A program made the position numbers and the translations under genes. A stretch of 64,000 nt of DNA from the NCBI RefSeq assembly GCF_058153355.1, contig NZ_CM177019.1. One strand, written 5' to 3'. Below the pieces are notes generated by a model. That model was not told where the DNA came from. It was given only the letters and a program-made list of their open reading frames with translations, and searched no databases. Positions 43,186 through 64,000 of the stretch are shown here, piece after piece. Within the stretch, counting starts at the first letter, position 1, and each line of letters starts with the position of its first letter.

Positions 43186-43393
43186 TTCAATGGATTACCG
43201 TTAAATCATTTTAAAATCAGTAAGTTGTATCGAGTTTGTATGCTTTACTGTCATTAACTTACTGTATGTTGATCCAGTGTATTTAACCTTGATAAACTCA
43301 GTCCAGCAACACAAAACCGCAACACATTGCATTTTGTCCCGTAGAAAAGACTTGTATGTGTGAGCTTGTTTTCTGCGCCTACGCAGATAAGGA

Positions 43394-44797
43394 TTGAGAA
43401 TGCCGCGCACTGTAACACATAATCCGGATAGCCCCAATAATGACGATGTTTTAGCCGCATCTGAAAAATGGGACGCCTGTAAACCCCCCTATACCAGCGC
43501 ACACATGAAAATCTGTGTTGCTGCCGCCAAAATCATCCTCGCTGCTTCCGGCGTGGCTCGCCGTTCCAAATACGAAAAAGAGAACTATCTCCGTATCGAT
43601 TTCAGCAAAGCCGGTAAGGTTACATTTTACGCCGAGTTTCCAAAAAAGATGGGCCTCAAGGGTAAAAAGCTCGGCGAGTGGCCGGAGCTCGCTATCCAGC
43701 TGGCGCGCGAAAAAGCGCTAGGTATGGCTGACGGTGGCTTGCGGGCAGAGTCCGTACATGCAGCGCTGGAAATGTACCGGGATGACCTCAAAGCCAAAGT
43801 CGCCCGGCAGAAGCTGAGCCTGGACAGTTTCACAACCTACGGGGTGCGTATCGACCGGATTAAAGCAACGTTCGGCGAGCGTGAGGTGTTCAGCGACGTA
43901 ACATACAATCGGCTGGTGGAAGTGCTGGACGAGTGGATCGCCACTCGCTCGAACAATAACGCCCTGGAGTTGTTTGCCGAGCTCCGTCGGTTCTGGAAGT
44001 TCTGCGCACCTACTCTTTGCAACGGCCGCAATGTTGCCGCCAGTCTGCCAGATGATTATGTTTCCTCCCGCGTACAGAAACCCACCCCCACACGGCTTTT
44101 TACCGATATTGAATCAATCGCCCGACTCTGGCTCAATGTTGCTGCCTGCACCTCTGTACACCAGAAGAATGCTGTTCGCTTCATGATCATCACTGGTGTT
44201 CGTCCGATTAATGTCCATAACCTGCGCTGGGACTACGTTTACGAGGAGGCTGGTGAAATTGTTTATCCGGAAGGGGTTATCGGCATGCGAGGGGCTATGA
44301 AAACACAAAAGGCTTTCCGCCTGCCAATAACGCCGGAGATCCGGCGGATTATCGACGAGCAGAAAGCATGGCGTGATTCAGTTCCTGAGTGCAACAGGGA
44401 TTATGTATTTTTGCAGCCGCGTGATCCAATGCAGCCATTTTCAAAACGATCACTGGATAAGCTGGTGAAAACATACAGCCCGGACGGGGCTGTAAAAGGA
44501 ATAAAACATGATGGGACTGTTAAAGGGAAAGACGGTGCATTTAATACGATGTGCCGTAAATTCCTTAAGAGCAATGTTATTGCCTTGATGAAGGAAAGAG
44601 GCTATTCCCGATCAGACCGAAGGGAAATCAGCCTCCTTTGCCTTCACCACTCCAGCAAGTCAGATGACCCGATGGCAGAACATTACGACTTTTCTGATGA
44701 GATTTTACAGGAAGAGATTGCGTTAAAGCGCGAAGCTTTCGAGGCTCACGAGCGGAGCATACTTGCGCAGGTTGCATTGCTACGGCGGCGAGGTTAA
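43394..44797 (+). CDS. int: Phage integrase (probable tyrosine recombinase, divergent)
   Basis: 467-aa ORF at prophage edge beside AlpA-like gene; C-terminal region with conserved R, H and Y residues (..AEHYDF). Confidence 0.7.
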   Translation: MRMPRTVTHNPDSPNNDDVLAASEKWDACKPPYTSAHMKICVAAAKIILAASGVARRSKYEKENYLRIDFSKAGKVTFYAEFPKKMGLKGKKLGEWPELAIQLAREKALGMADGGLRAESVHAALEMYRDDLKAKVARQKLSLDSFTTYGVRIDRIKATFGEREVFSDVTYNRLVEVLDEWIATRSNNNALELFAELRRFWKFCAPTLCNGRNVAASLPDDYVSSRVQKPTPTRLFTDIESIARLWLNVAACTSVHQKNAVRFMIITGVRPINVHNLRWDYVYEEAGEIVYPEGVIGMRGAMKTQKAFRLPITPEIRRIIDEQKAWRDSVPECNRDYVFLQPRDPMQPFSKRSLDKLVKTYSPDGAVKGIKHDGTVKGKDGAFNTMCRKFLKSNVIALMKERGYSRSDRREISLLCLHHSSKSDDPMAEHYDFSDEILQEEIALKREAFEAHERSILAQVALLRRRG

Positions 44798-44994
44798 TAC
44801 TGGCTGCGACACTTTTGAATAAAAGCGTCGACATTTCGGCGCTCATAACGAACTACTTTTGCACTGAAACGAATTGGTGCCAGGATAGCCCGATGACGAT
44901 GCTTAATATTCCACTCACATAGCGTTTTCTGTGTAATACCTAACTTTTGGCATACTTCATCTGGGGTGAGTAAATCGTCGGGTTTCTCGCTCAT
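44794..44994 (-). CDS. AlpA/excisionase-type HTH DNA-binding protein
   Basis: 66-aa ORF LLTPDEVCQKLGITQKTLCEW typical of AlpA/Xis family; stop overlaps int stop. Confidence 0.75.
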   Translation of the reverse strand: MSEKPDDLLTPDEVCQKLGITQKTLCEWNIKHRHRAILAPIRFSAKVVRYERRNVDAFIQKCRSQY

Positions 44995-46385
44995 GCTATA
45001 CCTCTCTTTTTCATGGCATCGAGCAGGATGTCCTGCACTGTTCGTTTTGAGTTGCGCCGCTCCATCACCATTTCGTCCATAGTGTCGGCCGCAATAATGT
45101 GGTGAATAAATACCGGACGATTGTGTCCGGCCTGTATCTGCCTGGTGGGGCCGATACGTTCAATAATTTGCTGATACTGCTCCAGGTCCCACCAGTGTGA
45201 GAAAAATACTAGTATGTTTCCGCCGTCCTGCATGTTCAGACCGTGGCCCGCGCTGGCTGGGTGTGCAAAGAGAACAGGAATCTTTCCGGAATTCCAGTCG
45301 CGCAGTGTCTGTGGATCTTGGTCGAGGTGACGACCGCGAGGGAATGCTTTAAGCAAGCGTTCAAGATCGTGTTTCCAGTGATAAGCAACCAGCACAGGTG
45401 CGCCAGCTGCTTCGGTCAGTATGCTGTCCAGCGCCTGCAGTTTGGTGTCATGCAGTTCTGACCAACTTCCGGTGTCGTCTGTGTATACTGCGCCACTGGC
45501 GATTTGCAGACACTTCAGTGTCTTTGCCGCGGCGTTTGGTGCTTCGATGCCTTCGCCATTCAGCTCGAGGAACATTTCCTTTTCCATTTCACGATACTGC
45601 TGACGGGCCTTCGGCGGCATATCCACGCGGATTACGTTATGGATGGGGTCTTTGATATCGAACCAGTCGGCCGCATCCAGCGAGAGGGTCACATCGGCTA
45701 ATGCTCGCTGTATTTCAGCCTGTGAGTGAGCAAACGGCTCCAGTTTGGTCCAGCTCTGCCCTGGAAACTGTATCGAGTTGAACCAGCGTGAGGTAAACGC
45801 GCCGTAAGTGCGTCCGAGACGTTGCCCCTGGTCCACAAACCACGCTTGTCCCCACAAATCTACCAGGCCGTTCGGTGCTGGCGTCCCGGTGAGATTTATC
45901 CAGCGCCGGACATACTTATGCGCCACTTTGCCCAGCGCCGCCGCGCGCTTACCACCACCTCGCAGCCGGAAGGATTTTAGCCGGGTGCTTTCATCCGGAA
46001 TGACAGTACCGAACGGCCATCGTTCTCCCAATTCTTCAACCAGCCAGACAAGGTTATCGTAGTTGATGGTGAACACGCTTGCGTTGCTGTTCGCCAGCGC
46101 CGTAGAGCGCGCTTTGGCATTACCAACAATCGGCTGCACCTCGATATTGCGTAAATGCCCCCACTTCACTGCTTCATCCGGCCAGGTGTTTGCTGCAACA
46201 CGTAGCGGTGCGAGGACCAGTGCGGGGCGTGTTTCTGCCCCTGCCATAAAGAGATCTTCCAGCGCAGTGAGCGTTGCCACGGTTTTACCCATCCCCATAC
46301 CTGCCCAGATGTTGCCGCGCATGATGTCGATTTGGTGATTGATGATCAGGTCTTGATACGGGCGGGGGGTGAAAATTTGTCCCAT
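44991..46385 (-). CDS. SNF2/DEAD-like phage helicase
   Basis: 464-aa ORF with Walker A GMGMGKT and DEST motif II. Confidence 0.8.
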   Translation of the reverse strand: MGQIFTPRPYQDLIINHQIDIMRGNIWAGMGMGKTVATLTALEDLFMAGAETRPALVLAPLRVAANTWPDEAVKWGHLRNIEVQPIVGNAKARSTALANSNASVFTINYDNLVWLVEELGERWPFGTVIPDESTRLKSFRLRGGGKRAAALGKVAHKYVRRWINLTGTPAPNGLVDLWGQAWFVDQGQRLGRTYGAFTSRWFNSIQFPGQSWTKLEPFAHSQAEIQRALADVTLSLDAADWFDIKDPIHNVIRVDMPPKARQQYREMEKEMFLELNGEGIEAPNAAAKTLKCLQIASGAVYTDDTGSWSELHDTKLQALDSILTEAAGAPVLVAYHWKHDLERLLKAFPRGRHLDQDPQTLRDWNSGKIPVLFAHPASAGHGLNMQDGGNILVFFSHWWDLEQYQQIIERIGPTRQIQAGHNRPVFIHHIIAADTMDEMVMERRNSKRTVQDILLDAMKKRGIA

Positions 46386-46428
46386 AGTGTTTTAGCCAGT
46401 AGGGCGCGGGTAATCCCGCGCAATAATG

Positions 46429-63206: not shown

Positions 63207-63267
63207 TAGCATTACAGAAGCTCTTCCTGGAGGGGCTTCGATAATGACCTGATAACTGGAAAATAAA

Positions 63268-63840
63268 ATGACTAAGAAGCTGAAAGCAAAACACGAGGTG
63301 TTTTGTCGCGAGTTTCTTGTCGATCTGAATGCTACACAAGCAGCTATTCGCGCAGGCTACGCCTCCAGGCGAGCACATGTTACGGGGGCTGAACTATACG
63401 GTAAACCTGAGATACGCGCCCGTATTAACGAGCTAAAGCAGGAGCGTATTGATCAACTGGGCATTGATGCGAATTATATGCTGATGCGACTGGTTGAGAT
63501 CGACAGGCTCGATGTGGCTGACATCCTGGAGGACGATTTAAGTATTAAGCCTCTGTCTGCGTGGCCGGAATCGTGGCGTCGGTACCTGAGTGGATTTAAC
63601 CTCGCTGAAATGTTTGAGGGGCGAGGAGATGACAGAGAAATGGTCGGGATCCTTAAAAAGATTAAGTGGCCTGATAAGGTTAAAAACCTTGAGTTGCTTG
63701 GGCGTCATGTTTCTGTTCAGGCGTTTAAAGACAACGTCAAAAATGAAGTGACTGGCGCTGATGGAGGACCAGTCAGAACAGAAATTACCAACTTAACGCC
63801 GGAGCAGGCTGCAGAGGCGTATAGAAAAATGATGGGCTAA
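63268..63840 (+). CDS. Terminase small subunit
   Basis: 190-aa [27 protein letters not shown] matches terminase small-subunit N-terminal motif. Confidence 0.75.
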
Positions 63841-63842
63841 GT

Positions 63843-64000
63843 ATGCCGTTACCATTCCCCTTCGATTTTAAACATCCTGATTACCAGATGGTTTTTGAAT
63901 GGCGGATGGAACGCCTACAGCGCATTCGCCAGAATCCTGAAATATTGCCTGCACTAAAACAGTTTTACCGTACCAACCCGGCTCAGTTCATTATCGACTG
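63843..64000 (+). CDS. Terminase large subunit, N-terminal fragment (continues beyond window)
   Basis: ATG at 63843 right after small subunit; open to window end. Confidence 0.55.

Follow-up and report, generated by a model that had tools for sequence, protein, structure and literature searches.

What kind of element lies beside the ferredoxin gene yfhL in contig NZ_CM177019.1 (NCBI RefSeq assembly GCF_058153355.1), where it begins, and how unusual it is, were the questions raised by a stretch of 64,000 nucleotides of this contig, here called the window. An earlier note, made from the sequence alone, had proposed a prophage in which lambda-style regulation and lysis are joined to a replication set with its own family-A DNA polymerase (PolA). 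Searches against PHROGs, NCBIfam and Pfam bore this out, and with these and the open reading frame (ORF) listing every gene that the note had named was found at or near the position it had given. The NCBIfam yield was small (ANR, holin and generic helix-turn-helix (HTH) matches), and the Pfam annotation of identical genes in public contigs agreed with the assignments made in the window. The gene inventory was sound, but an intein, an HNH endonuclease gene, a frameshift in the DUF2800 gene and a cassette of a small RNA (sRNA) with a BRO-N gene had been overlooked. It is very probable that positions 43138-64000 of the window are the left ~48% of a temperate phage of roughly 43 kb, integrated by a dedicated tyrosine integrase in the 5' coding end of yfhL and carrying an early region of the APSE/BPP-1 lineage. 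The family to which this element belongs is already known, and is found at yfhL in about 3% of the E. coli genomes sequenced. Its significance is mostly housekeeping, with three details of possible use to specialists: the reconstitution of yfhL, the intein in PolA, and an 8-bp duplication.

The attachment site was determined by aligning the left junction of the window (attL) with the right junction (attR) of the E. coli prophage vB_EcoM-606R2, taken from GenBank record ON470579, and with the empty site (attB) of E. coli K-12, and the comparison was repeated with MFDS1022581 and TB06051. The attL sequence, the empty attB of K-12 and MFDS1022581, and the attR of 606R2 and TB06051 are identical over an 18-bp core only, TTCACACATATCACAATT. 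The attL copy of this core is located at 43138..43155, within codons 11-16 of yfhL, which encode N-C-D-M-C-E, part of the first Fe-S cluster motif. The core was found as attL in the window, in six contigs and in three E. coli, as attB in K-12 and MFDS1022581, each of these prophage-free loci containing it once, and as attR in 606R2 and TB06051. In E. coli TB06051 it forms direct repeats 43,138 bp apart that bound a prophage whose immunity region is 99.3% identical to that of the window, and from this spacing the window holds about 48% of the element. The element had been thought to begin right after yfhL, at 43186, with its attachment core beyond the window. Neither view was upheld, since the crossover core is inside yfhL, which places the start 31-48 bp further left, and the attL copy of the core is contained in the window. 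The absence of a tRNA gene at the junction was confirmed with ARAGORN, the sole tRNA in the window being tRNA-Glu at 13391.

Integration at this site leaves yfhL rebuilt. Positions 43156..43185 (minus strand) are phage-borne codons 1-10 of yfhL, which replace the host sequence MALLITKKCI and give a YfhL N-terminus with two substitutions, A2S and K8R. Because the phage arm carries these substitute codons, YfhL stays full-length, and all lysogens examined have a complete yfhL ORF of 86 aa. At attR, adjoining yfhH, the native codons 1-16 of the gene remain as an orphan. Judging from this arrangement, the ribosome-binding site and promoter of the rebuilt gene must lie in phage DNA, between 43186 and 43399. 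This gene has been tabulated among those disrupted by prophage integration (PMC3603311), and described as a newly identified insertion site of Shiga toxin (Stx) prophages (PMC10675304, PMC12029490). Contrary to the disruption tabulated in PMC3603311, the gene is reconstituted at this site, the phage supplying its 5' end and promoter region. A broader suggestion would be that lysogeny rewires a conserved host gene, the phage swapping the promoter, ribosome-binding site and first ten codons of yfhL across the Enterobacterales, although we consider this rather unlikely. If it were true, yfhL expression in lysogens would be set by phage DNA, transcription from PL through xis and antisense to int could reach yfhL on induction, and the truncated yfhL 5' fragment would remain behind the native upstream region at attR.

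The integrase gene (43400..44797, plus strand, 465 aa) is directed inward from attL, and its product matched phrog_1 (1.7e-25) and, weakly, Pfam Phage_integrase (3.3e-06); a PDB sequence search with it gave nothing usable. Candidate catalytic residues R268, K301, R386, H416/H417 and Y429, assigned by eye with a Pfam match this weak, are invariant in 7 homologues. Convergent to int is a gene for a 66-aa HTH protein of excisionase type (44794..44994, minus strand; phrog_4745 3.6e-27, phrog_66 excisionase 7e-06, Pfam HTH_17 5.8e-05), which is probably the Xis or recombination directionality factor; it is the last gene of the leftward operon. The two genes overlap in their stop codons, which have the palindrome TTAA (44794-44797) in common. 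When GTDB species representatives, one genome for each prokaryotic species, were scanned, integrase homologues with 68-94% identity were identified in Kluyvera, Shimwellia, Enterobacteriaceae bacterium LSJC7, Pantoea, Serratia and Erwinia, all of them with an intact yfhL about 215 bp upstream on the opposite strand. At every full-length homologue locus a homologue of the small HTH gene is convergent to int; in Shimwellia and Pantoea it directly adjoins the stop codon of int, as in the window. Among these six-genus loci, the PolA module is also present only in Pantoea. Since both yfhL and the convergent HTH gene are kept across genera, the int-xis pair is a portable unit dedicated to this target, and the integrase lineage keeps yfhL as its target in at least seven genera. 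The convergence of int with an AlpA-type gene and the overlap of their stop codons, which had been regarded as atypical, are real, but the arrangement is not atypical, being kept with this integrase in six other genera. Transcriptional uncoupling of int from its directionality factor, with an int promoter that overlaps attL, is a widespread pattern (PMC2951348). KplE1 (CPS-53) resembles the window in that int adjoins attL and is transcribed apart from the directionality factor, so that excision would hinge on Xis expression (PMC2951348), but differs from it in having a tRNA gene as its integration site.

The replication genes are divided over the leftward and rightward early operons, as had been noted previously. 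On the minus strand are genes for a SNF2-family helicase (44991..46385; phrog_62 1.2e-157, Pfam SNF2-rel_dom), a VRR-NUC nuclease (48059-48355), a DUF4406 or nucleoside 2-deoxyribosyltransferase-like protein (48318-48617; Pfam DUF4406), PolA (48835..51762), a gp2.5-like single-stranded DNA-binding (SSB) and annealing protein of family DUF2815, now Pfam Enc34_ssDNA-bd, PF10991 (52947..53495; phrog_112 2.7e-57), and a DUF2800 or PD-(D/E)XK exonuclease (54022..55331). On the plus strand, after cro, is a gene for a PrimPol with a D5-type helicase (57997-60261; phrog_1156 DNA primase 5.6e-84, Pfam Prim-Pol 6.9e-07 and DUF5906 2.8e-13). The same plan is found in the aphid-symbiont phage APSE-1, a lambdoid Hamiltonella phage (Sendosyvirus) whose PolA gene is P45. 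Like the window, APSE-1 has a repressor with a divergent Cro-like gene, a gene of 2.26 kb (~750 aa) annotated as DNA helicase (P3), and Q, and leftward a ~300-aa unknown protein, DUF2800 exonuclease, gp2.5-like SSB, PolA, VRR-NUC, Ant/regulator, SNF2 and Xis. Protein identities between the two are 74.5% for SNF2 (APSE-1 P41), 63% for the N-extein of PolA, 62% for VRR-NUC, 55% for the SSB (P50) and 55-69% for DUF2800; the replication proteins as a whole fall within 52-75%, compared with 38% for Q and 45% for BRO/Ant. As APSE-1 shares this layout, the division of the replication genes between the two early operons is ancestral to the lineage. APSE has been described as lambdoid, with a PolA in which an intein is variably present and with a BRO-N gene accompanied by a c4 sRNA (PMC7313666).

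Several features separate the window from APSE. In APSE int is co-oriented with xis and the integrase is a different one, the intein is near the C-terminal ENxxQ region instead of in motif B, the late genes are of the P22-like podovirus type with toxin cassettes, whereas relatives of the window have a contractile-tail and baseplate module, and the host and attachment site are others. The window PrimPol-helicase had no match to APSE-1 P3 at E <= 1e-4, and no APSE match was present among the phage hits by megablast. As judged from these comparisons, the element shares the APSE-type module and is outside the genus Sendosyvirus. Among named relatives, PolA is closest to the polymerases of Yersinia phages YeP4-6 (73.5%), Bordetella phage BPP-1 (67.5%) and Hamiltonella phage APSE (about 64%), the YeP and BPP-1 values being obtained with the family's intein-less allele; for BPP-1 and YeP4-6, whose hosts differ, the comparison was limited to the polymerase. 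Jerseyvirus Ent1 (Salmonella vB_SenS-Ent1, gp34-gp40) also has the order DUF2800, SSB, PolA with intein, VRR-NUC and SNF2, at 29-51% identity (51% for the SNF2 protein gp34), but its primase-helicase has no detectable relation to that of the window, and the region shown is without integrase, CI and Q. Also close to the window are the E. coli yfhL prophages (vB_EcoM-606R2/611R5/689R2, ON470579 and others, and Stx2 prophages), which share the integrase, the 18-bp core and a backbone of 93-99% DNA identity; no paper citing ON470579 was found. The immunity, Q and lysis/terminase regions of the window each have a 97.8-99.3% match in E. coli yfhL prophages, but in its CI/Cro and Q types the window departs from 606R2, O121 and 89-3156, the modules being combined differently. 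It is further set apart from these prophages by an intein and an HNH gene that are both rare (3 of 5426 genomes for each), by the frameshift in DUF2800, by the absence of stx, and by its divergent Escherichia host. The mosaic is therefore not a newly seen combination, as its early layout, including the divided replication genes, is the APSE-1 plan; what looks unusual is the standard layout of a widespread, little-discussed lambdoid lineage encoding PolA (APSE, BPP-1 and the E. coli yfhL phages, some with Stx2).

Several points weigh against the reading of the window as part of a complete temperate phage. The right half of the prophage, with attR and all structural genes, is beyond the window end, which bears on the completeness of this copy. 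A scan for consensus promoters found none for int or for the rebuilt yfhL, and no homologue of an N-type early antiterminator was found. The DUF2800 gene is split into two ORFs, both of which matched phrog_69, because the 8-bp unit ATGTTTCT has three tandem copies in place of two at 55115-55138; the alignment to 606R2 has a single 8-bp gap, and with this frameshift the copy may be impaired. Lastly, attempts to induce Stx2b prophages at yfhL were unsuccessful in one study (PMC12029490).

It is possible, though doubtful, that the element is a recently inactivated cryptic prophage, with the same ancestry and insertion but no longer able to complete a lytic cycle. The split nuclease gene and the failed induction of the Stx2b prophages would both fit such a state, and there may be further lesions beyond the window. 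A one-off assembly error is an unlikely cause of the truncation, which recurs in a second sequencing run: contig SRR31441161_153 is 100% identical to the window over 18.1 kb, with the same truncated 373-aa call, and from this identity may come from the same strain. Relatives have also decayed, the O121 201805972 prophage being broken up by the insertion sequence (IS) elements IS600, IS421, IS66 and IS1, and the PolA gene of strain 89-3156 being frameshifted. The other ~25 prophage genes of the window, on the other hand, have uninterrupted ORFs with 93-99% identity to their counterparts in other strains, the other near-identical contigs, from other samples, have an intact 433-aa nuclease, and an 8-bp repeat can slip back. 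Exonuclease/annealase pairs are, moreover, often dispensable for phage growth, as with lambda red, which counts against loss of the lytic cycle through this lesion. The duplication could reflect either decay or on/off variation based on slippage, and is a simple marker of prophage decay or phase variation in a recombination nuclease.

The late end of the window bears on whether this phage is, as some members of the yfhL family are, a Shiga-toxin-converting one. The antiterminator Q gene (61046-61468, plus strand; Pfam Phage_antitermQ 2.2e-30, phrog_79) is followed by a tR'-like intrinsic terminator (61750-61771, plus strand) and by the lysis genes, all on the plus strand: a lambda-family holin S (61859-62218; TIGR01594 2.8e-40), endolysin R (62222-62698), Rz (62682-63206), and an Rz1 lipoprotein with an LLSGC lipobox embedded in Rz (62944-63105). 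The lysis cassette matched phrog_90 and phrog_214 and has 88-90% DNA identity to SfV/SfII/SfIV. The terminase small subunit (63268-63840, plus strand; Pfam Terminase_2 4e-30, phrog_51) and the first 54 codons of the terminase large subunit (TerL, plus strand), cut by the window end at 64000, complete the sequence. Strain 89-3156 has a yfhL prophage with the same early region and with stx2a and tRNA-Arg after a related Q, and Stx2b prophages at yfhL have been published (PMC10675304, PMC12029490). No stx toxin gene or ORF was found, however, in the 390-bp interval between Q and S in the window, which contains the terminator. The late region is of the 606R2 type, window positions 61497-64000 being 98.6% identical to vB_EcoM-606R2 and running into its annotated TerL, and the window Q is about 80% identical to that of the Stx2 relative. 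We therefore regard an Stx-converting phage as very improbable.

A phage satellite or phage-inducible chromosomal island (PICI) is less credible still: P4-like and PICI elements are also typified by an integrase together with a small HTH protein and a PrimPol-helicase, but this element has its own polymerase, CI, Cro and Q, a full lysis cassette, and the terminase small subunit with the start of TerL, and its near-identical relatives, 43 kb in total, have complete head, tail and baseplate modules. Beyond the terminase 606R2 continues into head, baseplate and tail-fibre genes, and TB06051 does likewise. The evidence from distribution also speaks for a mobile phage. The combination of int and SNF2 at the yfhL site was present in 157 of 5426 complete E. 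coli genomes, whereas the host part of the junction query was found in 5425 of them; the PolA type of the window was present in 158. In the int region the window and the copies in ordinary E. coli are 98.5-99.3% identical, compared with 93.2-96.8% for four of five segments of the host flank against the same strain; for the short stretch of yfhL coding sequence adjoining the core the value is 98.6%. Over 24000-30000 the host flank (21494-43137) is 99.0% identical to a few RefSeq genomes that bear the name "E. coli" (MFDS1022581, MFDS1019527 and N96) and 90-95% to most others, and this divergence of the backbone from typical E. coli indicates that the window is from a divergent Escherichia lineage. 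The 24000-30000 segment is 13-19 kb upstream of the site, and the MFDS1022581 chromosome to which it is 99.0% identical has the site empty. The same host-prophage junction, 99.9-100% identical, was found in six other public assemblies. An ancient island fixed beside yfhL, for which no supporting evidence was found, is scarcely conceivable, as about 97% of E. coli genomes are without the element, MFDS1022581 has an empty attB with the same core, the 18-bp direct repeat bounds the element in TB06051, and it is less diverged than most of the surrounding chromosome. The scenario in which the earlier note's reading would fail, with the block in all strains and no repeat, is excluded by this polymorphism together with the empty attB and the repeat in TB06051.

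The polymerase of this phage is made as a 975-aa precursor from a TTG start after a GGAGG Shine-Dalgarno sequence (phrog_17 1.4e-116, Pfam DNA_pol_A). Compared by BLASTP with the 687-aa intein-less PolA of vB_EcoM-606R2, its N-extein is 96% and its C-terminal part 87% identical, and between them are 287 additional residues (452-738; 49549..50409, minus strand), an exact in-frame insertion relative to intein-less alleles in polymerase motif B (RQIGKVxELG-LGYGG). The insertion, in which a block F is present, begins with C452, contains a TPDH block B and ends with V-H-N738 followed by C739, and these last three marks are kept in 5 homologous inteins. It is 31-40% identical to phage DNA-polymerase inteins, some of them annotated as such in Jerseyviruses, and by its motifs and this homology it is a class 1 (Hint) intein. 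Pfam recognised only DNA_pol_A in the precursor and not the intein, a PDB sequence search with the intein gave only a match to Nanoarchaeum equitans NEQ068 at E = 0.93, and no endonuclease motif was found in its central ~150 residues. The intein was present in 3 of the 5426 E. coli genomes, and 155 of the 158 E. coli PolA copies are without it. Its insertion site, L-E-L-A/C-G-Y-G, is common to Vibrio phage 97.13 and EBPR siphovirus 2, is four codons downstream of the site in Jerseyvirus Ent1 (K-A/C-E-L-G) and Pseudomonas MR14, and differs from that of APSE, so that there are at least three distinct positions at which phage PolA genes carry homologous inteins. The intein of Ent1 is about 31% identical to that of the window, and no endonuclease motif is recognisable in it.

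Beside the intein, 50-60 bp of the N-extein are much more diverged from intein-less alleles than the rest and fail to align. This tract looks like what co-conversion during homing would leave. The intein and intein-less alleles, with N-exteins 96% identical, together with the tract form a natural pair for the study of intein homing and its cost in a temperate phage. A free-standing HNH endonuclease of homing type (53492..54007, minus strand; phrog_99 8.3e-60, Pfam HNH_3) is encoded between the SSB and nuclease genes. This gene is not at this position in 606R2, is missing from most members of the family, and was found in 3 of the 5426 E. coli genomes, two of which have the intein. Strict co-occurrence of the two was considered and rejected, as VL40 has the intein with no HNH match and GF4 has an HNH match with no intein match. 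A weaker possibility is that homing is supplied either by the unrecognisable 150-aa central region of the intein or by the nearby HNH enzyme, in a collaborative route. In other family members TIR-like or Nmad5 genes are located between the PolA and SSB genes.

The immunity region is centred on the CI repressor gene (57016..57708, minus strand), whose product has an N-terminal HTH and a C-terminal S24/LexA-type domain (phrog_4 2.4e-58, phrog_6201, NF007257, NF048000 S24) and whose transcript terminator is at 56991-56973. Perfect matches to GTTWAG-N4-CTWAAC occur three times in the 64 kb, all flanking cI, and when copies with 1-3 mismatches are included there are three sites per side. The three copies of the 16-bp operator forming OL (56871..56950) overlap a leftward TTGACT-N17-TTAACT promoter, and those of OR, perfect at 57726-57741 and 57773-57788 and degenerate at 57751-57766, overlap a rightward TTGACT-N17-TAACCT promoter; both promoters face away from cI. 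Divergent from CI is Cro (57822-58004, plus strand; phrog_409 1.9e-16). As read from these sites and genes, the scheme of CI, OL/OR and Q is the lambda regulatory layout, except that no N homologue was found. Replication of the O/P type, which depends on the DnaB and Pol III of the host, is replaced by the PrimPol-helicase and PolA module, so that the element is lambda-like in regulation only. In the PL leader (56440-56693, minus strand) is an ORF of 64 aa that carries no annotation; it starts with GTG after a GAGGAAA Shine-Dalgarno sequence and encodes two CxxC pairs of the zinc-ribbon kind. After this ORF, and before the first conserved operon gene, is a hairpin, GCCCGCC...GACGGGC, with a T-run at about 56466-56440.

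A self-contained cassette (51798..52871, minus strand) interrupts the leftward replication operon. It has, all on the minus strand, a strong sigma-70 promoter with 11 of 12 consensus positions (52871-52842), an RNA of the sRNA-Xcc1 family (52661-52747; Rfam RF02221, 68.2 bits against a gathering score of 53), a BRO-N/antirepressor ORF (51829 to 52620 or 52785; Pfam Bro-N, PHROG anti-repressor) and a terminator (51817-51798). Gene callers have placed the BRO start variously, giving products of 263, 300, 306 or 318 aa, probably due to the RNA being read as coding sequence. Relatives have Rfam matches to C4, isrK or sRNA-Xcc1 upstream of their Ant/BRO genes. In the immI region of P1/P7 (c4-ant) and in Gifsy-1 (isrK), as in the window, a small structured RNA directly precedes a gene of antirepressor type, the unit having a promoter and terminator of its own, although the RNA of the window matches sRNA-Xcc1 (RF02221), unlike the C4 of P1/P7. 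By analogy with these systems, the cassette points to P1-type RNA control of an antirepressor.

From these parts a life cycle may be proposed. Its steps are taken from what is known of the families and from gene layout, in distinction from the insertion site, the rebuilding of yfhL, the polymorphism, the gene families, the synteny and the intein motifs, which were observed directly. In the lysogen CI, bound to three 16-bp operators on each side of cI, would shut PL and PR. Self-cleavage of CI stimulated by RecA would open PR for transcription of cro, the PrimPol-helicase gene and Q, and open PL for the two genes of unknown function, the DUF2800 exonuclease (broken here), SSB/annealase, PolA, ANR, DUF4406, VRR-NUC, SNF2 and lastly Xis. 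The PrimPol-helicase would open and prime the origin, and PolA, active only once the 287-aa intein had spliced out of motif B, would copy the genome, with the nuclease, annealase and VRR-NUC processing recombination intermediates. Xis, made only on induction, would direct Int, itself expressed from a separate promoter beside attL, towards excision of the phage. Q would then carry transcription past the 61750 terminator into S-R-Rz/Rz1, terminase and the myovirus-type structural module beyond the window.

The remaining genes of the leftward operon include two conserved genes (55334..56403, minus strand; phrog_6784 5e-179 and phrog_11981), encoding proteins of 300 aa and 56 aa, which are the first conserved genes of the operon. 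The gene for the 300-aa protein is at 55334-56236 (minus strand), and the C-terminus of the protein is 56% identical to APSE-1 P53. It has 588 homologues in Enterobacteriaceae, all unnamed among the matches listed, in prophages of Escherichia, Citrobacter, Salmonella and Enterobacter. No Pfam family was assigned to it, a PDB sequence search gave nothing usable, and an AlphaFold2 model made with a 17-sequence alignment was all-helical and of low confidence, with a predicted local distance difference test (pLDDT) value of 63 and a predicted template modelling (pTM) score of 0.38. An ANR/PerC-like regulator (48614-48829, minus strand; NF033650 ANR 9.4e-20) is encoded beside the DUF4406 and VRR-NUC genes, and the block 48059..48829 matched phrog_93 (3.8e-31) and phrog_355 (3.8e-44). 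In the rightward operon, a 139-aa ORF without an assigned function (60578-60997, plus strand) lies between the PrimPol-helicase gene and Q. PADLOC detected no defence systems in the window, only generic SNF2 and homing-endonuclease matches.

Between SNF2 and VRR-NUC are a Rha/antirepressor-like gene (46429-47277, minus strand; Pfam Phage_pRha, phrog_8235/63 anti-repressor), a 58-aa ORF (47295-47471, minus strand), a 109-aa Arc/ribbon-helix-helix gene (47588-47917, plus strand) followed by a terminator (47943-47968), and a second Arc gene of 58 aa (47886-48062, minus strand), both Arc genes having matches to Pfam Arc and to the Arc-like repressors of PHROGs. In this 46429-48062 region the 109-aa Arc gene is divergent from the 58-aa ORF and Rha, a layout that recalls the mnt/arc-ant arrangement of P22 immI. 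The same slot in TB06051 holds three unrelated genes on the plus strand. In the host part of the window, the shoB/ohsC toxin-antitoxin pair (42252-42328) adjoins yfhL, and a complete rRNA operon with tRNA-Glu is located at 11764-16776, a position that matches E. coli rrnG; both are ordinary features.

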